The translations under genes and the position numbers were made by a program. The notes under the pieces were generated by a model, which was not told where the DNA came from, did no database searches, and saw only the letters and a list, made by a program, of their open reading frames with translations. From positions 1 to 59,642 of IMG/VR virus record IMGVR_UViG_3300037248_000128: a DNA stretch of 59,642 nt. One strand, given 5' to 3'. Source of the stretch: a virus (lineage: Duplodnaviria; Caudoviricetes). Below, in pieces: positions 4,334-58,568 of this stretch. Positions within the stretch are counted from its first letter, which is position 1; each line of letters starts with the position of its first letter.

Positions 4334-4953
4334 GGCCGCCCCGCTAGGCCGCAGTAGCCGTGGCGCCCACTGTTTGGGCGCGGCCCTTCGTTCAGTCGGG
4401 CATACTCCCCGTGAACATCCCTAGCCGCTGCATCGTAGGCCGCCGCTGCAGAGTCTTCGTCCGCGAAGGTCCCTAAGTGAAGGTGAACCCCCGACTTGGC
4501 TATTTGGGCCGCCCACTTACCGCTTTTGGTCATGAAAACTCCGCGATGCCTAGACCGACCTCCACGCGCCGCTGAGTTAGCTGCGTTTTGGGCGGGCGTG
4601 ACGAGTCGTAGGTTTCCGCGACGATTGTTTAGGGTGTCGCCGTCCCGGTGATCCACAAACATGCTCTTCGGGATCACGCCCCAGATGCGGCTAGCGATTT
4701 CGCGGTGCAGGTATCCCGCATCATTTTTCGCGTAGCGGCCAGACCACCAATATCCCCACCCGGCCACGTCACTATCGATCCTGTCGATGACTACCGACCG
4801 GTCGCCGCTTATCAGAAACCGCCAATCAGGCTGCCAGCGGAACGCCATGCAGGCCGACCCGATGCAAAACCCATCTGCATCGTGCGTGCCGCCGCGATAG
4901 CCCTCAACGGGACACGCCTTGGCTTTCGCTTCATCTTCGGTCATCGGGTCCAC
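4330..4953 (-). CDS. HNH endonuclease with AP2 domain, inside a small Cys-rich protein
   Basis: VDHRDGDTLNNRRGNLR (HNH_3); RGV..KWAAQI..HLGTF..AAAAYDAAA..HGEYARLN (AP2). Confidence 0.85.
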   Translation of the reverse strand: MDPMTEDEAKAKACPVEGYRGGTHDADGFCIGSACMAFRWQPDWRFLISGDRSVVIDRIDSDVAGWGYWWSGRYAKNDAGYLHREIASRIWGVIPKSMFVDHRDGDTLNNRRGNLRLVTPAQNAANSAARGGRSRHRGVFMTKSGKWAAQIAKSGVHLHLGTFADEDSAAAAYDAAARDVHGEYARLNEGPRPNSGRHGYCGLAGRP

Positions 4954-17672: not shown

Positions 17673-18163
17673 TGCGTCGGTTTCTCCATGCCGAGCATCG
17701 CTCGAATATTGTCCTGAGTTTCAGCTTCATAGCCGGACGCCGCTAAAATCTCCTCCATAGCCCAATCAAGGGTGGGTGCGCTGTTGACCGCGCGAATGAG
17801 TCGCGTCGGGTTGAACGGGGCATTAGCGCCAACGAGTTGGAGAGCCTCAAAGATGTGACTGAGCGTAAGGCCCGCATCGTGAAAGCGAGCGATCAAATCG
17901 CAGACGATAAGTCCCTCTGCAGCCCACTCGCGGTAGCCAAAAATTGGCTGTAGTTCGTTAGCAGCTTTGCCAAGATTGCAGTCTTGGCAGGCTGTGGCGA
18001 GGTTGCGCGGTTCGTTCGTTCCGCCGGACGCTACCGGTTTTACGTGGTCGACGTGGAGTCGGACATCAGCGTCGTTCACACTGGCGCCACAGTATCGGCA
18101 TCGGAACCCGTCGCGCTCCAAGATAGCGAAGCGTAGTTGCAGCGGCACTGAGCGCCTACGCAT
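17669..18163 (-). CDS. HNH endonuclease (Zn-binding type)
   Basis: RDGFRCRYCG...LHVDHVKPVASGG..NLATACQDCNLGK. Confidence 0.9.
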   Translation of the reverse strand: MRRRSVPLQLRFAILERDGFRCRYCGASVNDADVRLHVDHVKPVASGGTNEPRNLATACQDCNLGKAANELQPIFGYREWAAEGLIVCDLIARFHDAGLTLSHIFEALQLVGANAPFNPTRLIRAVNSAPTLDWAMEEILAASGYEAETQDNIRAMLGMEKPTQ

Positions 18164-18434
18164 TGGCCCGCGCCTCGTACCGCTGGAAAGCGACAACGCA
18201 CGTCGAGTGGTCTCGGTTGAAGAACTGGCCGATCCGCGGGTAGGTCCATCCCTTGGCGCGCAGATGGGCGATGGCTTCGTCGCGGGCGCGGACGATGTGC
18301 CGGTCGCGATTGGCGGATCGAATGTCGCCGATCGTGAGCCCGTGCCAGCGGGCTATCTCAACCAGCTCTTCACACGTCCGCTCGTACGGCGTCTTGAAAA
18401 CGCAATGTTCGGAGGGTATTTCTAGGCCAGTCAT
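18156..18434 (-). CDS. DnaA C-terminal domain-like HTH protein
   Basis: IVRARDEAI..LR..TYPRIGQFFNRDHST. Confidence 0.75.
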   Translation of the reverse strand: MTGLEIPSEHCVFKTPYERTCEELVEIARWHGLTIGDIRSANRDRHIVRARDEAIAHLRAKGWTYPRIGQFFNRDHSTCVVAFQRYEARANA

Positions 18435-18526: not shown

Positions 18527-18772
18527 TCACGAATCGCCTAGAGCAAGCCAGCGCCGCTGGTGCGGCAAAAACGAATCTGGCGCGTGTTCCGTGCAGAACC
18601 ACGTCCGCCCAAAATCGTCGGAATAGTGTGCCGAGCCGCCGCCGACCCTACATATATGGCCACCGACCTCCGCCGCCCTCCGGCACGGCACGGGCGCCGC
18701 GTCGAATGCGTCGAGCGGATCAAGGGGCGCGGTAACGTAAATTTGATCGAACGCGTCTAGGGGGTCAGACAT
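18527..18772 (-). CDS. Hypothetical protein
   Basis: 81 aa, WFCTEH motif. Confidence 0.55.
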   Translation of the reverse strand: MSDPLDAFDQIYVTAPLDPLDAFDAAPVPCRRAAEVGGHICRVGGGSAHYSDDFGRTWFCTEHAPDSFLPHQRRWLALGDS

Positions 18773-19494
18773 AGCGGCAACAGTTCCGCAATCCGGTCAC
18801 GCGCGATTTGCGCCATCTCCGGGTCGATTTCGCAACCGACATAGCGGCGGCCCGCCATCGCTGCAGCCTCGCCCGCCGCACCTGACCCCGCGAAGAAGTC
18901 ACCGACCAGCCCGCCAGCAGGGCAAGACGTGCGAATCAGGATTTCCAGCAGCGCCGACGGCTTCTCTGTGGGGTGCAGCGCGCGACCGTGGCGCGAACGC
19001 ATGTAGATCACTGAGCGAGCGATACGCGGGCCGCCGTCAACGCTGGCGTACGGAACGGCGTCGATCTTGCCCATGTGAGTCGGGCGACCCTTGCGGCGGC
19101 GAACCTCGCGCGCCACGGCATCGGGGGTGGTCTGAACCTCGTTGAAGACATCGGCCCAAGCGGCGTCGTCGCGATAGAATTGGACTGCGTGCTCATGCAC
19201 CCGCTTGAAACGGTCAGCATGGAAGCCGGACCCGTTGTGCTTTTCCCACACGATGTCTTGGGCGAAGCGCCAGCCAGACGGCACGCCTTGCGTCAAAAAG
19301 CAACGCATGGATCCGAACACCCACATGGAACCGGTCGGCTTCAGCGCCTCGCGCGCCGCATCGGCCCACATGCTGACTTTGCGATCCCAGCCCAGCGAGG
19401 TTTCGCCGTAGGGCGGGTCGGCGATGATCATGTCAAACGGGCCATGCGCCGCCATCGCTTCGCGGCAATCGCCAACGATCAGCCGGACGCTCAC
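18757..19494 (-). CDS. DNA N6-adenine/N4-cytosine methyltransferase (beta class)
   Basis: DPPY, HPTEKP, DFFAGSG motifs. Confidence 0.92.
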   Translation of the reverse strand: MSVRLIVGDCREAMAAHGPFDMIIADPPYGETSLGWDRKVSMWADAAREALKPTGSMWVFGSMRCFLTQGVPSGWRFAQDIVWEKHNGSGFHADRFKRVHEHAVQFYRDDAAWADVFNEVQTTPDAVAREVRRRKGRPTHMGKIDAVPYASVDGGPRIARSVIYMRSRHGRALHPTEKPSALLEILIRTSCPAGGLVGDFFAGSGAAGEAAAMAGRRYVGCEIDPEMAQIARDRIAELLPLCLTP

Positions 19495-19676
19495 AGCCAG
19501 CCCTTCGCGCCTAGCCAGCAGCGCACGTAGCGCCAGCGCCACCAAGGGAAGACCTTGCGGTCTTGCATCAGAAAATAGAGCGAGACCGCGTACAGCTCAC
19601 GCTTCGTCGGGAACATCTCGTTCGGGATCGTGTACGCGTAGAAGGTCTTCATCTTCACACCGCCGTCGTCGCTCAC
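19491..19676 (-). CDS. Hypothetical protein
   Basis: Overlaps both neighbours. Confidence 0.5.
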   Translation of the reverse strand: MSDDGGVKMKTFYAYTIPNEMFPTKRELYAVSLYFLMQDRKVFPWWRWRYVRCWLGAKGWL

Positions 19677-20227
19677 TCTACCGCCTTCACGATCACGTCG
19701 ACTCCCGCTGTCTCAATCAGCGGCAAGTCGTAATCGTCCTGTCTGCGAGGCGCTGGCGTCACTCGATAGCCGTACAGCGCGATCAGCGCCGCCTCTGCGC
19801 GGCCGTCGTGCTTCTTCAGAGGCCAATTGGACGAGTGCCGCGGCAACAGCACCGAGGCGCGCGCTCGAGCCCCGTCCTTGTCCTTCGGCACCGCCAGAAG
19901 CTTCTTCCACGCCATCGGCGACACGCGCTCAATCACGAGCTTGTTGGCCGCGCAGACGCCGTAGAGAAGCCCGAACGTCTTGCCGAACGAGAACGTCGAT
20001 GCGAGCCCGCCGCCTGGCATTGGCGTCGAGTTTTCGATGAAGACGGTCGGCCGCAGCTTCGCCATCCAAAGGATCAGGTCGACCAACGCCTGAACGTCAA
20101 CCTCGCGCTTGTTCTTCGCGTTGCGCGTCAGCAAGAGCGTGGGCACGTCTCGCACGTCAAGGCGATCGGTCGCCGGGTCGTAGAGGGCGAGGGCGCCGCT
20201 CAAGCCGGGATCGATGCCGAGGATCAC
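19673..20227 (-). CDS. RuvC-like Holliday junction resolvase
   Basis: ILGIDPGLSGA, VFIE, FSFG, WKK, DGRAEAALIA. Confidence 0.85.
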   Translation of the reverse strand: MILGIDPGLSGALALYDPATDRLDVRDVPTLLLTRNAKNKREVDVQALVDLILWMAKLRPTVFIENSTPMPGGGLASTFSFGKTFGLLYGVCAANKLVIERVSPMAWKKLLAVPKDKDGARARASVLLPRHSSNWPLKKHDGRAEAALIALYGYRVTPAPRRQDDYDLPLIETAGVDVIVKAVE

Positions 20228-20520
20228 GCGGCGTCCGGCTCGGCAGCGTCGAGCATGTCGAGGATGCGCCCGCTGATGGCGACGCGATACATCGCGATCT
20301 GATCCTGTTCGGACTTTAGCGCGAGTTGGTCCTTGCGTTCCTCGGCGATGGCCTTGCGGAGAATCTTGGTCTCGAATCCCGCCTCCTTGGCCTCGTGGAA
20401 AACCTCGCGAAGGTCTTCGTTCACCGCGTCGCGATCATTGAGCAAATTCATCGCGCGCTCAGCCAGCGCCTTAAGCTGGCCGGCAGCTTGGCCGCTCAGC
20501 ACGCCCGGTTCGTCATCCAT
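20224..20520 (-). CDS. GapR/DUF2312-family DNA-binding protein
   Basis: QLKALAER...DLREVFHEAKEAGFETKILRKAI. Confidence 0.85.
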   Translation of the reverse strand: MDDEPGVLSGQAAGQLKALAERAMNLLNDRDAVNEDLREVFHEAKEAGFETKILRKAIAEERKDQLALKSEQDQIAMYRVAISGRILDMLDAAEPDAA

Positions 20521-20719
20521 TGGTCGACTCCTTGATGAAGTAGATGGTCTTGCGCTCAAGGCCGAGCGCGTCCAGCACGCGGTCTGAGGGCATCGCCTCG
20601 CCGCTCTTGATTCGGCTCAGATAGGCTGGCGAAATGCCGATTTGCGCGGCCAGCGTCGCCGCAGAGCCAACGCGGGCTTCTGCTTGTTGCAGCAAGACTA
20701 TCATCTGCTCGTGATCCAT
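20513..20719 (-). CDS. Cro-like HTH regulator
   Basis: LAAQIGISPAYLSRIKSG; next to the divergent intergenic region. Confidence 0.8.
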   Translation of the reverse strand: MDHEQMIVLLQQAEARVGSAATLAAQIGISPAYLSRIKSGEAMPSDRVLDALGLERKTIYFIKESTNG

Positions 20720-21410: not shown

Positions 21411-21958
21411 GCGAGGAACGCTGGTTGCCGGTCGTCGGGTTCGAGGGTCTGTACGAGGTAAGCGACTTCGGGCGTGTGCGCAGCCTGGACCGGCTAGCGA
21501 CATACACCACGCCGAAGGGCACGGTGGTGATCCGTCGCCACAAGGGAGTCCTTCTCAAGCCGGGCATAGCGAGCAACGGCTATCCACTTGTCGTTCTCGG
21601 AAAAGGCAACAGTCGTCTTGTGCACGCCCTTGTACTGACAGCGTTTGTCGGCCCGCCCGCCCCTGGGTTCGAGGTTTGTCACGCCGACGGCACTCGCACG
21701 AATAACTGCCTAACGAACCTCCGCTGGGGCACGCGAACGGACAACATGCGAGATGCAGTTCGGCACGGGACGGCGAACGGCTACTCGTCACCCGGTTCCA
21801 CGAACGGAAGCTCGGTACTGACCGAGGGCGACATTCCCCTGATCCGACAATTGGTGCGCAGCGGGCTTCGCTACACCGAAATCGCGCCTAGGTTTGGTGT
21901 CGGGCCCGACACGATCGGGCTTATCGCCCGCGGTCGTACATGGAGCCATGTGCCGTGA
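21407..21958 (+). CDS. NUMOD4-HNH homing endonuclease
   Basis: ERWLPVVGFEGLYEVSDFGRVRS; VCHADGTRTNNCLTNLRWGT..DN. Confidence 0.92.
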   Translation: MSEERWLPVVGFEGLYEVSDFGRVRSLDRLATYTTPKGTVVIRRHKGVLLKPGIASNGYPLVVLGKGNSRLVHALVLTAFVGPPAPGFEVCHADGTRTNNCLTNLRWGTRTDNMRDAVRHGTANGYSSPGSTNGSSVLTEGDIPLIRQLVRSGLRYTEIAPRFGVGPDTIGLIARGRTWSHVP

Positions 21959-39572: not shown

Positions 39573-39602
39573 TAAGCCAATGATACAGGTGGAAACTGTC
39601 AA
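39560..39602. promoter_or_regulatory. Candidate promoters for the two arms of the cassette
   Basis: TTGACG on plus strand (39560) and TTGACA on minus strand (39602) in an AT-rich stretch. Confidence 0.4.
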
Positions 39603-39648
39603 AAGGCAAGCCTGATTGTCGGGCACAGGGCCATGACAGGAGAACGAA

Positions 39649-40380
39649 ATGACGAAAACTGACCGAGAGAGCCTTGCCGGCGCATTGTCGTCCAAGGCAA
39701 CCTTCAAGGGCTTCAGCGTTTGGCTGGTCGGCGATACGCCGGTCATCACTCACGCGTGGAGCGAAAAAGCGCGGCGCGAGATGCTGCAGAAGCAGGTCAA
39801 GGCGACCAAGGGCGGGAAAGAGGCCCGCGATCCCGAGGCCGATTTTGTGTCGAGTCTCTACGAGATGGGCGACGGTGCCTACGGCTTCCCGGCGATGGGC
39901 GTGAAGAACTGCATTCTCAGCTCGGCGCACAAGGACAAGGGCATCCCAAGGTCGGCGGTGATGGCCGGTCTGTGGATCGACGCCGACATGGTGCGCACTC
40001 GACCGGCGCTCGCCGGCGCGGTCTGCGACATGCCGCTGATCCGCATCTACGGCACCGATCCGGAGATGCGGGAGGACATGGTGAAAATCGGCTCTGGCCT
40101 GAACAAGATCGCCAATCTGAGCTACCGCGCGCAGTTCACCGTGTGGGCGATGAAGGTGACCGGCCGGTTCAACACCACGATCCTGACGCCTGAGGCGCTG
40201 GCGTTCCTCATCCAAGAAGCTGGACTCGCGTCTGGCCTCGGCGAGTGGCGCAACGAGCGCCGCGGCATGTTCGGCGCCTTCCACCTCGCCGACGTGGACG
40301 AAGAGGCCGCATGGGAAGCCTACGCCGACGGCAAGGGCGACCTTCCGGTTCCGGCGTCCTATCGGCAAGCGGCGGAGTAA
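39649..40380 (+). CDS. Stand-alone Cas7/RAMP-like protein (VIPR-type effector candidate)
   Basis: N-terminal beta strand + G.TP.I.H; YGFPAMGVKNCI (P...K helix); C-terminal Gly-rich loop AGLASGLGEWRNERRGMFGAF; AGGAG RBS. Confidence 0.78.
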   Translation: MTKTDRESLAGALSSKATFKGFSVWLVGDTPVITHAWSEKARREMLQKQVKATKGGKEARDPEADFVSSLYEMGDGAYGFPAMGVKNCILSSAHKDKGIPRSAVMAGLWIDADMVRTRPALAGAVCDMPLIRIYGTDPEMREDMVKIGSGLNKIANLSYRAQFTVWAMKVTGRFNTTILTPEALAFLIQEAGLASGLGEWRNERRGMFGAFHLADVDEEAAWEAYADGKGDLPVPASYRQAAE

Positions 40381-40386
40381 CCAACC

Positions 40387-40890
40387 ATGAACTACGTGTT
40401 CAAGGACGCACCCGTCACGATCTTGAACGCCAAGCGCGCCGATCCCAACCGGATCGGCGCTGCCTTGGCGAAGATCGCCGAAGACGGGCACGGGCGCCTG
40501 ACGCCGAACGCCGTCGTGGAGGCCGCCCGGAATCCGCGTTCGCCGTTGCACCGGCACTTCGAATGGGACGACGCAAAGGCGGCCGAAGCATACCGGCTCG
40601 ACCAAGCTCGCGAAATCATCCGAGTTGTCCGTATCGAGGGCAACGACAATGAAGAACCCGTCCGAGCTTTCCTGTCCGTCAAGGACGCCGCTGGCGTCAG
40701 CTATCGAACGGCCGAAGACGTGCAGGGAAGCCTCGAACTTCAGCTTGCCGTCCTAAGGCAGGCTGAAGCCGATCTCGAGGCGTGGACGAAGCGCTACCGC
40801 GAACTCAGCGAAATCTGCGACGACGTGCTCAAGGCGCGCGACAAGATCAGGACGCGGCGCGAAGCGGCGGAAAGTCGTCTTCACGCCTAG
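40387..40890 (+). CDS. Partner protein of the RAMP-like gene
   Basis: LTPNAVVEAARNPRSPLHRHFEWDDAKAAEAYRLDQAREII; sits between the RAMP gene and the array. Confidence 0.75.
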   Translation: MNYVFKDAPVTILNAKRADPNRIGAALAKIAEDGHGRLTPNAVVEAARNPRSPLHRHFEWDDAKAAEAYRLDQAREIIRVVRIEGNDNEEPVRAFLSVKDAAGVSYRTAEDVQGSLELQLAVLRQAEADLEAWTKRYRELSEICDDVLKARDKIRTRREAAESRLHA

Positions 40891-40897
40891 ACGATTT

Positions 40898-41600
40898 GGC
40901 TGGGACCGGCGGCGCTTTGTCTGAGTGTCGGGCCGGGGCAGGGAAAAGCAGGCGCGGCCACGAAATGTGACGCAAGTCGGCGCGTGTCGCGAACGGGCAT
41001 GGCCGGATGGGCTGGGCTTGGTGGAGCCAGTCAGCGGAGGGAATGGCAGGTCTTTGCTCGGCAGGCGGGGCATCGAAGGTGATGGCGCATTGCGGAGCGG
41101 GAAGGTCATGTTTTGAGCGTCTCGTGTCGGCTCGTGATGGCAAGGCAGGCAGTGCTCGGGGGAGCGGGGCAGAGATCGTTGATGCAGCGCTCGGCCCAGT
41201 TAGGTGAGGCAGGCTCGGAACGGCCAGTCCCAGCAAGTGACGGAACGGCTCGGGCAGGTCGGCTTGGCAGGCGTGGACGGGCTTTGTCCGGCAGAGGCGA
41301 GCTAGTCGCGTAACGCCATGTCTCAGCTTGGCTCGGCAGGAATGGATATGCGAGGCCCGTTGTCGCCCGTCCCGGTAGGGACCGTGATGGCATCTCGCGG
41401 AACGGCGAGGCTGGATAGGAACGGCTGTGCCCGTAGCGGATTGGCTCGGTTGGGCAGGCTGGGAACGGTCGTGAGGGGCGAGCGTCGGCAATGCCCGGAC
41501 GGGAGGTGTTAGGCAAGGCTGGCGGGGTTGGGAAAGGCAAGTAGTCGATAGGACAGTCTCGTCTTCGCATCGCCCGGGCAGTCGTGGCCCAGTAGGGCTG
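40898..41600 (+). ncRNA. Array of about 11 GGY-NN pentamer units (putative guide RNAs)
   Basis: 5-nt periodicity; junction pentamers (mostly GGCAG/GGCTG) + 4-mer at 40947, 41001, 41060, 41144, 41208, 41266, 41335, 41409, 41453, 41517, 41596; no credible ORF. Confidence 0.85.
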
Positions 41601-41603
41601 GCC

Positions 41604-42059
41604 CTATGCGAACCGGCGCGCGTAAAGCGAACCGGTTATCGAGTAGCCCCGCGCTTGGAGCAAGTATTCGAGCGCGGGGTGACCGATACGACTCTCGATC
41701 ACGATGACGCACGGCTCGTCTTTCGACAAGTCCGCCTCCATGAAGTCGAACAGACCGCCCGCCGCGCCGACGTTTCGGTGCTCAGGCGCCACCCAGATCG
41801 TATCGTCGCGGGCGAACTTATGGTTATAGTGGGCGTGCCTCGGCACAACCGTCATGATGCAGTAGCCGATCAATCGACCGTTGAGGCGTGCGGTGTAGGC
41901 GAACAGCAGTCCAGCGCGGTTCGCTCTCTCGTAAAATCCGAAGTCAGGGTCAAGCGGCGTCTCGACAAGCCGCAACCCAAGTTCCGCCCAGTGCACGGGC
42001 AGCAGCGGACGCAACTCGTCGATCACGTCGCTATAGTTTTCGCGGCGGTATTCGATCAT
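41604..42059 (-). CDS. GNAT-family acetyltransferase
   Basis: GRLIGY...IWVAPEHRNVGAAGGLF...RGY. Confidence 0.8.
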   Translation of the reverse strand: MIEYRRENYSDVIDELRPLLPVHWAELGLRLVETPLDPDFGFYERANRAGLLFAYTARLNGRLIGYCIMTVVPRHAHYNHKFARDDTIWVAPEHRNVGAAGGLFDFMEADLSKDEPCVIVIESRIGHPALEYLLQARGYSITGSLYARRFA

Positions 42060-42394
42060 GAGGCGACTCCCGCAGCGGCTTCCTCCGCTTCGTGGATTTG
42101 CCAGTGAGTGTAGACGAATCCGCGAAGGCTGTTCGGGTTGGTGTAGTCCACATCCTGAAGATCGAACAGCGTCGTGCCGAGGAAGCTGGATTCGTCGATG
42201 TGGCTCTGATTGTTGCGCTGCAAGAACCCGGGGAAGTCGCGCAGGTCTATAGGGTCGAGCACATACTCGATGAGTTGCGGCCCGCCTTTGGCGACGATGC
42301 CCTGCCGGATCACGTTGTGGCTGACGCGGTGATGGAACGACCAGCGCAGCCAGTCTTCGGGCGTCTGCGGGACCTCAAGCAGGACCGGGAGCAA
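42056..42394 (-). CDS. Hypothetical virion-module protein
   Basis: Coupled ORF, His-rich. Confidence 0.65.
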   Translation of the reverse strand: MLPVLLEVPQTPEDWLRWSFHHRVSHNVIRQGIVAKGGPQLIEYVLDPIDLRDFPGFLQRNNQSHIDESSFLGTTLFDLQDVDYTNPNSLRGFVYTHWQIHEAEEAAAGVAS

Positions 42395-48771: not shown

Positions 48772-49476
48772 TTAGTTGCTCCTTATGTAGCAGTCGCCCT
48801 CAGCGACTGTATGCAGGGGGACGCTCTCGAAGTATTCGGTTGCTTCCTGGCTTTCGAGCGCGAGCAACCGATGGCCTTCTTCGGCGACGAGTTCGGGGTA
48901 GTCCTTAAGCAGGGCGATGGCTGCTCTAACCCGGTCAACTGCGCGCTGACCCGGCGGCTGGCGTTTCACCCAAAGCTCTAGATTGCTGGGTTCGTTGTTC
49001 AGCCTGTCACCGTCCTTGTGGTGGACATTCTCGTTGGGACGGAGAGCGCGGCCAATCATCAACTCCATGACGAGGCGGTGCTCCGCAACGGATTTTCCAC
49101 CGTACTGGATGTAGCGATAACCGCTGTGGTGAATCGCGCCCTTGCCCATCTTGGTTTCGGCGCCACCGACGTGGCCGGTGTCCATCATTCGATCGTAGTG
49201 CATCCCGCACAGTCCCCGCGCGCTTATCGCGCGCGAGCACCCAGGGACACTGCAAAGGCCGACCCGCGGCTGCTTCATGCTCACGAGAGAGATCGCGGTG
49301 CCGTACTTTCTGATTCGCTGGTCGTGCATGGAGCAATAGTGTTCGCGGTGCTGCGGCTTGCGATCACATCCGTCCACCAAGCACCGCCCCCTGTGTTCCA
49401 AGCAAAAGCGCTCGTTCGGGGATTTAACCTCGAACGGTGTGTTGCAAAAACGGCAGAGGCGCGGTGCTACGGTCAT
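48772..49476 (-). CDS. HNH homing endonuclease with Zn-finger repeats
   Basis: AEHRLVME..IGR.L..NENVHHKDGDRLNN...NLELW. Confidence 0.9.
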   Translation of the reverse strand: MTVAPRLCRFCNTPFEVKSPNERFCLEHRGRCLVDGCDRKPQHREHYCSMHDQRIRKYGTAISLVSMKQPRVGLCSVPGCSRAISARGLCGMHYDRMMDTGHVGGAETKMGKGAIHHSGYRYIQYGGKSVAEHRLVMELMIGRALRPNENVHHKDGDRLNNEPSNLELWVKRQPPGQRAVDRVRAAIALLKDYPELVAEEGHRLLALESQEATEYFESVPLHTVAEGDCYIRSN

Positions 49477-50646: not shown

Positions 50647-51435
50647 ATGCGTTTCACGCCAATCGACGTGCCGTGCCAGCATTGCGGCACCAACATGCAC
50701 ATCACGCACAAGCGCGATGCTACGAAGAAGTTCTGCAGCCCGACCTGCTACCACGCCTACGAGGCGGAGCACGGCGGCCACGGCGTTGTGGAGGCGGTCA
50801 CCTTCCACTGCAAGCGCTGCGGAAAGCCCTTTACCCGAAAGCCGGGCTCCCTGCGACAGTACCGAAAGACGTTCGGTCGCGACCCGCTTTACTGCTCCCG
50901 CGCGTGCGGCTGGATCGGCAAGCGGAAGACTGAGGGTAGGCCGTGTATCGTCTGCGGCAAACCTGTACCGACCGTTTGGGTTGCCCGCAGCGGGCGCACC
51001 CCGCGCACCGAAGGTCGCCGCAACACCATCTGCAGTCCTGAGTGCCGATCGGCCTTCAAGGTCGCCGAACTGGCGCGCCTCAAGCCCATTGACAGTCGGC
51101 AGATCACCAAGCGTGTCGAACGACGCACTGGCTACATTCGTCTGCACATTCCGCGGACGCCAGATCGGAAGGGGTACGACATCCTCGAGCATCGCTACGT
51201 CATGGAGCAGATGCTCGGCCGACCGCTCACGAGCGAGGAAACGGTGCACCACGTCAACGGGCAAAGGACCGATAATAGGCCGACCAATCTCAGCCTCCGT
51301 TCGGGACGACACGGCCCCGGCGGCGACGTTCCCGGCATGATCCGCTGGGCGCACGAGTTCATCGCGCGCTACCCTCAGTTCGACGCCGAGGGCAACTTCC
51401 ATCCGGTCAATGCTGGCGAGGTGGTTGATCACTAG
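50647..51435 (+). CDS. HNH homing endonuclease (antisense to head operon)
   Basis: CxxC/CSxxC repeats; LEHRYVMEQMLGRPL...ETVHHVNGQRTDNR..NL. Confidence 0.9.
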   Translation: MRFTPIDVPCQHCGTNMHITHKRDATKKFCSPTCYHAYEAEHGGHGVVEAVTFHCKRCGKPFTRKPGSLRQYRKTFGRDPLYCSRACGWIGKRKTEGRPCIVCGKPVPTVWVARSGRTPRTEGRRNTICSPECRSAFKVAELARLKPIDSRQITKRVERRTGYIRLHIPRTPDRKGYDILEHRYVMEQMLGRPLTSEETVHHVNGQRTDNRPTNLSLRSGRHGPGGDVPGMIRWAHEFIARYPQFDAEGNFHPVNAGEVVDH

Positions 51436-55543: not shown

Positions 55544-56096
55544 ATGGCCCGAAAGAACAAGACTGCTGTCGCCGGCATCCCGAAGTCGACTCTGCTGACG
55601 CTCGCTAATGAGATGTGCCGCGAGCGGGGCGAACGGCCCAATCGCGGAGTCGTTGCGACCGTTCAGCTAATGACCGGTAGGACTAGGGCGCGCTCTGCCG
55701 CGTGGAAGTGGCTGGCGAGTGAGTATCGCCGGCGAAACACGATTGCCGAGCCGCCCCGGCAGAAGCGGCGGCCCGCGTCCCGTCCAGCCGAGTCGTTCTA
55801 CAACTCGAAAGAATGGCGGGCGGTTCGGTTTAAGGCGTTGAAGGGCTCTAACGGATGCTGCGCCCTATGTGGGCGCTCACCCCGCGAGCATGGCATCGTT
55901 CTGCACGTCGACCACATCAAGCCCCGCTCAAAGCGGCCCGACCTCGAACTCGCCCTGAGCAACCTTCAGGTTCTCTGTCAGGACTGCAACATGGGCAAGT
56001 CGAACCGAGACGATACCCGATTGGCGGCCAGCGCCGTCAGCGGAGTCAGACGACGACTTCCTAACCGTCCTCGCGATTGCGGCAAACGACCGCTAG
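55544..56096 (+). CDS. HNH endonuclease with a probable +1 frameshift near its 3' end
   Basis: FYNSKEWRAVR..CALCG..LHVDHIKP..NLQVLCQDCNMGKSN; extra C at 56016-56018. Confidence 0.8.
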
Positions 56097-57962: not shown

Positions 57963-58568
57963 ATGGCTGAGAAGCCTCGTACCACAAAAATCTGCGCGGT
58001 GTCGGGATGCGAGAAGCCAGTCCGAACCGCTGGCCTCTGCGTTGCGCACTATAGCCGCTGGTATCGCGGCAAGCCGCTGGAGGGCCCGCTTCGCCTCGTA
58101 GGCGTGCCCGTACAGCAACGATTCGATAGTAAGGTCAGGCGAGGCGCGCCCGACGAGTGCTGGCCGTGGCTCGGCGCCACGAGTCCCAAAGGGTACGGTG
58201 TTCTTCAGCTCGGTACCGCCGTTGAGAGTGACACCCGGTTCGCTCATAGGCTTGCGTGGGAGTACGCGAACGGCCCGATCCCAGAAGGCCAGCGCGTCCT
58301 GCACCGCTGCGACAATCCGCCGTGCTGCAATCCCGGTCACCTGTTCCTTGGAACGGACACCGACAATCAGCGCGACAAGGTGGAGAAAGGGCGACAAGCA
58401 AAGGGGCAGGATTTGCCGCAAACCGTGCTGACGCCCGCCGACGTGCGAGCAATCAGGCGGTCGCTCGCAGCGGGACAAACGCAGGAACTCATCGGCCTCC
58501 GCTACGGTGTCTCCCGGGCGACTATCGGACAGATAAAGCGCGGCGAGACGTGGCGGCATGTCGTCTAA
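57963..58568 (+). CDS. HNH homing endonuclease (antisense)
   Basis: ECWPWLGA...GYG...AHRLAWE...VLHRCDNPPCCNPGHLFLGT..DN. Confidence 0.92.
   Translation: MAEKPRTTKICAVSGCEKPVRTAGLCVAHYSRWYRGKPLEGPLRLVGVPVQQRFDSKVRRGAPDECWPWLGATSPKGYGVLQLGTAVESDTRFAHRLAWEYANGPIPEGQRVLHRCDNPPCCNPGHLFLGTDTDNQRDKVEKGRQAKGQDLPQTVLTPADVRAIRRSLAAGQTQELIGLRYGVSRATIGQIKRGETWRHVV

Follow-up and report, generated by a model that had tools for sequence, protein, structure and literature searches.

A candidate guide in the VIPR array of a soil phage is complementary to the codons of an HNH nuclease motif

What is held in the roughly 700 bp that separate a plus-strand gene pair from a minus-strand GNAT gene (41604-42059) in an uncultured soil phage, and against what might it be directed? 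The stretch analysed here (the window) is the complete 59,642-bp virus record of this phage, IMGVR_UViG_3300037248_000128. An earlier note on this DNA had singled out one unit of the intervening stretch and decoded its regularly spaced dinucleotides as the active-site motif of a foreign HNH nuclease. From sequence and model comparisons, we find that the locus is a divergent VIPR system with a staggered array. The gene pair consists of vipr (39649-40380, 243 aa), a homologue of the vipr gene of Escherichia phage SUSP1 that encodes a RAMP protein, and of a vap-like accessory gene (40387-40890, 167 aa), a conserved neighbour of vipr. On the same strand follows a guide RNA (vrRNA) array (40951-41600), recognised by its periodicity and by pentamer parsing; its guide units, about ten in number, are staggered and consist of degenerate GGY/NN pentamers (Y, C or T; NN, the two variable bases). 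In its second unit, g2 (41005-41064, plus strand), the NN are antisense to the codons of an HNH motif.

VIPR is an RNA-guided silencing system described in 2026 preprints (10.64898/2026.04.26.720920) and also treated in a language-model survey (10.64898/2026.10.21.760802). According to these preprints, a vrRNA comprises 9-16 YNNGG repeats, with one Vipr protomer per pentamer; GGY is held by the protein, and NN pair with double-stranded DNA such that every third target base, usually a codon wobble position, is skipped. Binding of Vipr and vrRNA represses transcription. As natural targets, the discovery preprint and a further one (10.64898/2026.10.15.759431) name satellites, prophage regulators, and other VIPR systems.

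The variable bases of g2 and the genes they match

The guide unit g2 comprises 12 pentamers with 11 variable NN. The eleven dinucleotides listed in the earlier note (tg tg tt gg ca ag ag at ag tt tc) are indeed found at 41008-9, 41013-14 and onwards in 5-base steps to 41058-59, where they occupy the last two positions of pentamers whose first three bases approximate GGY. Their reverse complement, with the skipped base restored as N, is GANAANCTNATNCTNCTNTGNCCNAANCANCA and reads (D/E)(N/K)L(I/M)LL(C/W/*)P(N/K)(H/Q)(H/Q), which covers the HNH active-site motif (D/E)NLILLCPNHH that the note had proposed. The note had thereby correctly applied the “1 nt skip rule” published for VIPR (10.64898/2026.04.26.720920). 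The unit begins one base ahead of the start given in that note, since its first base is the G at 41005 that it shares with the preceding unit, and its twelfth pentamer GGCAG (41060-41064) is the constant junction rather than part of the guide.

The gapped pattern GANAANCTNATNCTNCTNTGNCCNAANCANCA was scanned as an exact match in viral contigs, in a one-genome-per-species collection (596 Gb), and in metagenome contigs. The search returned 75 matches (3 viral, 23 genomic, and 49 metagenomic), several of which lie in near-identical proteins, so that they are not 75 independent events. By chance, the 596-Gb genome collection should contain about 0.07 matches if all bases were equally frequent. The earlier note had called for such a search and had seen a lack of HNH enrichment among the hits as fatal to its claim; the opposite was observed, with all 75 matches encoding the HNH motif. 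Each lies in frame as (D/E)NL(I/M)LLCP(N/K)HH, and the base that is skipped is always the wobble base of its codon. The matched motifs are ENLILLCPNHH, DNLILLCPNHH, and their I-to-M and N-to-K variants, and their upstream context (...AHI...GPR...(Y/F)) is conserved as well. In viral contigs, neither the reversed g2 pattern nor a g2 pattern with a 2-nt skip gave any match. Shuffling the order of the NN yielded on average 0.1 matches at a threshold of at least 80% across the loci compared, against 26 for the true order; these 26 loci had been fetched with the g2 pattern, and the shuffle control gives the background rate only. Read under the skip rule, the NN of g2 are complementary to the sense strand encoding (D/E)NL(I/M)LLCP(N/K)HH. 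This segment forms the catalytic, metal-binding end of an HNH_2-type nuclease domain.

The phage itself does not carry this target. No site in its genome matches g2 at up to 3 mismatches, and the best self score outside the array is 15/22 (68%), below the self-target threshold of at least 80% NN match given in the main text of the VIPR preprint (10.64898/2026.04.26.720920). The window contains seven HNH genes (4579-4713, 17966-18100, 21614-21751, 48961-49080, 51190-51303, 55859-56008, and 58236-58373), five of them of family PF13392 (HNH_3, homing-type) and two of PF01844 (classical HNH). The earlier note had counted seven such genes, found the g2 motif in none, and quoted two Zn-type versions instead; the g2 motif is absent from all seven, and the Zn-type motifs are present as NLQVLCQDCN at 55961-55990 (plus strand) and NLATACQDCN at 17975-18004 (minus strand). 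Its view that the target is foreign agrees with both the mismatch scan and the self score.

Analysis of the matched proteins reveals that exact g2 targets occur in defence-type HNH nucleases of many phyla. Among the 26 viral and genomic open reading frames (ORFs), an HNH or HNH_2 domain (Pfam, E<=0.01) is present in 24, and in 18 of these it exceeds the curated cut-off; the two that Pfam missed are a 650-aa ORF (L057) and a 54-aa fragment (L070). The 11 matched residues lie inside the Pfam HNH stretch and form its C-terminal catalytic motif. We further scanned 51 of the 75 ORFs with PADLOC, leaving out by hand 2 short ones from the first 26 and 22 metagenomic ones that were short, end-cut, or apparently duplicate. 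Defence models were matched (E<=1e-5) by 41 of the 51: 36 ORFs match SAVED-HNH, CBASS “Effector Endonuclease”, PDC-M68A or Shedu SduA models, 3 match only the type IV methyl-directed restriction model (mREase_IV), and 2 only PtuB. The remaining 10 have no match and include all three viral-contig proteins. SAVED-HNH and type IV restriction, the classes that the earlier note had offered as examples, are both represented. Most PADLOC matches span only the HNH domain of about 100 aa; full-length matches were obtained for SAVED-HNH in L071 and for PDC-M68A in L048, L064, L083, L093 and L117. Some matched ORFs are fused to PIN-TPR-GreABC, nSTAND or ABC-3C CTD10 modules. We also considered that the HNH targets might be Vap nucleases of other VIPR types, and rejected this, with no Vipr or Vap profile match and no period-5 array within about 5-6 kb of them.

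The VIPR locus and its staggered array

We read the locus as VIPR because of a profile match to SUSP1 Vipr, a Cas7-like fold, the alignment of residues that contact the GG bases, the in-phase GGY/NN composition of related arrays, and the recurrence of a module made of vipr, a vap-like gene, and an array. A profile of 26 homologues matches PDB 36pp_D, “SUSP1 Vipr protein”, with E 1.9e-15, and the window Vipr taken as a single sequence matches the same chain with E 9e-4. Its AlphaFold2 (AF2) model has a predicted local distance difference test score (pLDDT) of 78.7, and Foldseek relates this model to Cas7-family RAMPs (type VII Cas7, Csm3, Cmr4, and Cas7-11) with E 2e-4 to 1e-3 and probability 1.00. 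In SUSP1, R138 and D177-W178-R179 are described as the GG-contacting residues in the text of the structural preprint (10.64898/2026.04.26.720927). Residue R160 of the window Vipr aligns with the thumb residue R138, and E199-W200-R201 aligns with the G-loop D177-W178-R179. The glycine-rich stretch G..GEWR....G.FG is nearly invariant in the 26 homologues, and H35 is invariant across the family. The window gene is intact and keeps the RNA-contact residues; its product is homologous to RAMP proteins and has the RRM core, the G-loop and the thumb by which we recognise Vipr. It also matches phrog_4652.

The protein of the vap-like gene matches phrog_15946. Its AF2 model (pLDDT 92.2) reveals an N-terminal alpha/beta domain followed by a 50-residue C-terminal helix. 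A fold search gave only weak winged-helix matches (best Foldseek E 0.085), and a wide fold search with VIA returned only coiled-coil matches to the C-terminal helix.

Downstream of this gene pair, the stretch 40891-41600 is coherently periodic at 4.91 nt, where its spectral power is 21.6, compared with a genome median of 0.63 (period 5, 200-nt windows); it lacks a period of 3 and has a GC skew of about +0.3. A dynamic-programming parse resolves about ten units of pentamers between 40951 and 41600, joined through 4-nt junctions. The units abut at GGCAG/GC (the slash marking the boundary), with one G common to both and neither conserved sequence nor a 3' tail between them; the junction that ends g2 lies at 41060-41066 on the plus strand, where the last G of the unit is the first G of the next. 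The period is 4.91 nt because the units overlap by this one G (54/11 = 4.91). Within each unit, GGY is well kept in the first and last 2-4 pentamers and degenerate in the interior. The main text of the VIPR preprint calls such internal degeneracy frequent (10.64898/2026.04.26.720920).

Two minus-strand ORFs run through the array, 40847-41491 (214 aa) and 41106-41570 (154 aa). They have neither family matches nor codon periodicity and are spurious by-products of the C-rich complement. A search of Rfam for known RNA families gave no match, and blastn of 39600-42100 against phage records gave none either. Other readings of the array, as a sponge for a TRAP- or CsrA-like protein, as a cluster of Chi sites, a pac site or an origin, or as an R-loop or G-quadruplex element or a Rho loading site on the opposite strand, were dropped once the module had been identified as VIPR.

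Our comparison set comprises 45 sources, that is, the window and 44 loci from IMG/VR and GenBank actinophages, some of them near-duplicates. The Vipr homologues are 29-82% identical and are also found in phages of actinobacteria. A vap-like gene adjoins vipr in every source but L022 (44 of 45), and the full module is found in 42, with the array always on the gene strand; the three sources without an array are L022, in which the gene is truncated and there is no second gene, L024, and L036, where the locus ends just past the second gene. The array usually follows both genes, lies between them in L025, L026, L041, L042 and L044, and precedes both in L027, L037 and L043. The relatives' arrays are G-skewed, have periods of 4.86-4.96, and are much cleaner than that of the window. 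In 35 of them, the in-phase composition of the units is G (96%), G (90%), and C or T (92%), followed by two variable positions. Of the 115 spacings between GGCAGGC sites in these arrays, 84 equal 4 modulo 5, the commonest being 54 nt (20 cases), 59 nt (19), and 49 nt (18), which correspond to 11, 12 and 10 pentamers. We note that g2 ends at GGCAG/GC, that its length of 59 nt is among these three modal values, and that its 12 pentamers fall within the 9-16 repeats of a vrRNA. A period of about 4.9 nt together with GGCAGGC junctions spaced 5n-1 nt apart provides a rule by which staggered arrays can be recognised.

Some actinophage coding sequences (CDSs) annotated as “hypothetical protein” overlie vrRNA arrays. 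This is the case for gp40 of Gordonia phage UmaThurman (L042, 3616-3939) and for gp48 of Mycobacterium phage Donkeykong (L043, 2456-2842), where the array lies upstream of the genes; neither CDS call is probably a real protein. In Gordonia phage ODay (L044, 3573-3787), the array was left as an unannotated gap.

The first guide unit, g1 (40951-41005, plus strand; 11 pentamers, 10 variable NN), was delimited by the pentamer parse and is recognised by its matches to the vipr genes of relatives. In the sense direction, its NN decode to A-H-K-D-K-G-V-A-R-(I/M). Scanned at a threshold of at least 16/20 against the 44 related loci, it gave 18 matches, compared with a mean of 0.85 and a maximum of 5 in the shuffled-NN null. 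In 17 of the 18, a relative's vipr gene is matched in frame at its (A/S/T)HKDKG site, with a top score of 19/20 (L017). The corresponding site of the phage's own vipr (39925-39954) scores 15/20, partly via an arginine codon AGG instead of CGN. The pattern suggests that g1 is directed against the VIPR systems of rivals and avoids its own, and guides aimed at the vipr genes of rivals are reported in the main texts of the preprints (10.64898/2026.04.26.720920; 10.64898/2026.10.15.759431). The skip rule therefore yields sensible targets elsewhere in the array, too.

Among the other guides, g8 (8 units) has a self score of 13/16, which is chance level in the null, and is the sole guide to reach at least 80%. 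The reverse complement of g7 (41339-41413) decodes to S-V-A-(I/M)-(I/M)-G-L-G-G-T-G-S-Y, which we take to resemble the GxGGxGS nucleotide-binding loop of ThiF/E1-like enzymes. A counterpart of g2 was sought in the 44 related loci, where the best score was 16/22 at a site outside any array. The guides of the 35 related arrays were likewise compared with the HNH loci; a 9-unit match of L019 to L106 was rejected for its wrong register and a fixed C in the supposed NN.

What g2 may silence

Taken together, the best explanation, to which we assign a probability of about 0.7, is that g2 is a vrRNA guide of a staggered VIPR array whose filament would repress a foreign HNH gene. By homology to SUSP1, the array would be transcribed with or next to vipr and vap, its RNA would be cut at the GGCAG/G junctions, and each pentamer would be bound by one Vipr protomer that holds GGY and presents NN. 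The resulting Vipr—vrRNA filament would then bind the HNH gene in a foreign element and repress its transcription. As candidates for this element, we consider defence islands of the host or of a prophage, and competing phages or satellites. Since g2 reads an active-site motif only at the positions that determine its codons, it would apply to many members of the family and resist synonymous escape. A more far-reaching version, which we put forward tentatively and consider doubtful, is that the phage VIPR acts as an anti-defence weapon, with g2 as a “pan-family” silencer of HNH immune nucleases that would work across hosts and leave no synonymous escape; the families concerned would be Cap5-like CBASS effectors, PDC-M68A, HNH-type Shedu, and type IV restriction enzymes.

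Several observations weigh against a working g2 guide of this kind. No target was identified for the remaining eight of the ten guides, and the nine guides other than g2, compared with the 75 HNH loci, gave nothing above the shuffled null, so the array does not converge on one element. Exact scans of viral contigs with an 11-unit stretch of g7 and with the 10 units of g1 gave 0 matches each. No alphaproteobacteria are among the 23 genome-collection matches of g2, which bears on the host hints given below, and no listed RNA run contains the locus. Silencing a constitutive defence nuclease after infection would, moreover, leave in place the protein already made. Finally, the scaffold of g2 is poor: counted by eye, 5 of its 12 pentamers are strict GGY, 2 are GGA, and the rest are AGC, GTC, CGG, GTC and TGC. 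In SUSP1, perturbation of GGY abolished silencing, according to the main text of the VIPR preprint (10.64898/2026.04.26.720920).

These last two points could also be taken to mean that g2 is a relic, a guide that once targeted an HNH gene and whose scaffold has since decayed so that Vipr no longer assembles on it. With 7 of 12 pentamers departing from strict GGY, and with a period-5 power of 21.6 over 670 nt in the window array where relatives reach up to 35 in 400-nt windows, such decay is conceivable. Drift should, however, have spoiled the NN too, and all 22 guide bases still fit the motif exactly, even in the pentamers with a poor scaffold. The degeneracy also sits in the interior of every unit, with unit ends remaining GGC, as is said to be frequent in the preprint; vipr is intact with its contact residues kept, and contigs of two soil DNA runs, one of them possibly the window's own source, carry an identical array. 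We therefore regard a relic as unlikely. Far less probable still is that a random string of NN happens to fit a conserved motif. The choice could have been made among about ten guides and several registers, and a random 22-base gapped pattern has a chance of about 7% of at least one exact match in 596 Gb, but the 75 matches all fall on one catalytic motif in the wobble-skipping frame, four other gapped patterns of 20-22 bases gave 0 matches in viral contigs, and the register was fixed beforehand by the GGY scaffold and the junction.

It is also possible, although we lean away from it, that g2 serves competition between viruses and is in truth directed against an HNH gene carried by a competing phage or satellite, such as one for a nuclease of homing or packaging. 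Such a reading varies the best explanation and does not contradict it. Three exact matches do lie on viral contigs, in HNH proteins of 161-372 aa without a PADLOC match; the published targets are satellites, prophages, and other VIPR systems; and the neighbouring guide g1 appears aimed at the vipr genes of rival phages. On the other hand, defence-type domains are carried by 41 of the 51 scanned ORFs, and several matched ORFs are fused to defence modules, as described above. Five related phage contigs, scanned for the g2 target at up to 3 mismatches, contain none, which counts against a rival-virus target and against the wider proposal of an active g2 alike.

If g2 is active as a vrRNA guide against foreign HNH genes, phages are able to switch off immune genes through a guide that acts at the level of a motif. 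Nature would then provide a case of a guide directed at a protein motif and not at a single gene, and VIPR would extend from conflict between viruses to conflict between virus and host immunity. The kind of system is known, and the HNH target class was not found in the VIPR texts searched: in the main texts of 10.64898/2026.04.26.720920 and 10.64898/2026.10.15.759431 and in one supplementary file, HNH occurs only for Vap proteins. The term “CBASS” is absent from both main texts, and “anti-defense”, sought only in the latter, is absent from it.

Comparison with known systems, host and habitat

The closest described relatives are the type II VIPR systems of Escherichia phage SUSP1 and of a Pseudomonas fulva prophage (10.64898/2026.04.26.720920; 10.64898/2026.04.26.720927; PDB 36pp). 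They have RNA-contact residues in common with the window and an adjacent small accessory gene. Like the window, they use guides of GGY/NN pentamers, 9-16 per guide, with one skipped base on the codon wobble, and direct them against foreign elements and other vipr genes without a self-target. The window Vipr is nevertheless distant from that of SUSP1, as tblastn on phage records (E<=1e-5) gave only actinophage homologues and did not recover SUSP1. In contrast to type II, the window array lacks a conserved structured 3' tail, and its units overlap by 1 nt at GGCAG/GC. The array is about 650 nt long with about 10 guides, compared with four vrRNAs in SUSP1, and its scaffold is more degenerate. The targets differ as well, with an HNH motif in the window and a satellite recombinase and a prophage regulator among the published ones. 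“Staggered arrays” with a 1-nt overlap are mentioned in the legend to fig. S18 of the VIPR preprint (10.64898/2026.04.26.720920), and such an overlap fits the 5n-1 spacing of 49, 54 and 59 nt in the relatives. With this locus, VIPR, known only since 2026, is extended to an uncultured soil phage whose staggered array is long.

The Cas7 backbones of Class 1 CRISPR systems (Csm3, Cmr4, and type VII Cas7) have in common with the window Vipr the RAMP fold, one protomer per fixed RNA step, and periodically unpaired bases. Whereas the CRISPR step is 6 nt with 5 paired, that of the window is 5 nt with 2 paired, and the locus has no repeat-spacer array, no Cas1/Cas2, and no nuclease partner. A functional parallel is provided by the CRISPR-Cas system of phage ICP1, which attacks the host-resident PLE by cleavage with contiguous spacers. 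Both are phage-carried guides against a foreign element that would block the phage; unlike ICP1 CRISPR-Cas, the window system is expected to bind and silence through a gapped code, with a guide that fits a protein-family motif and not the sequence of a single element.

The host of the phage is hinted at by few genes. A protein with a GapR-like DNA-binding domain (20224-20559), a protein with a DnaA C-terminal helix-turn-helix (18156-18434), and an N6/N4 DNA methylase (18757-19545) give a hint of an alphaproteobacterial host; GapR is alphaproteobacterial. The large terminase has its best matches, at only about 30% identity, in uncultured and Hydrogenobaculum phages.

The two soil DNA runs whose contigs carry the identical array (X1 and X2) also contain short contigs whose similarity to vipr is confined to its most conserved stretches (40003-40044 and 40234-40290), with 3-7 differences. 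Judging from these fragments, related VIPR-bearing phages probably share the habitat, as an anti-vipr guide would predict.

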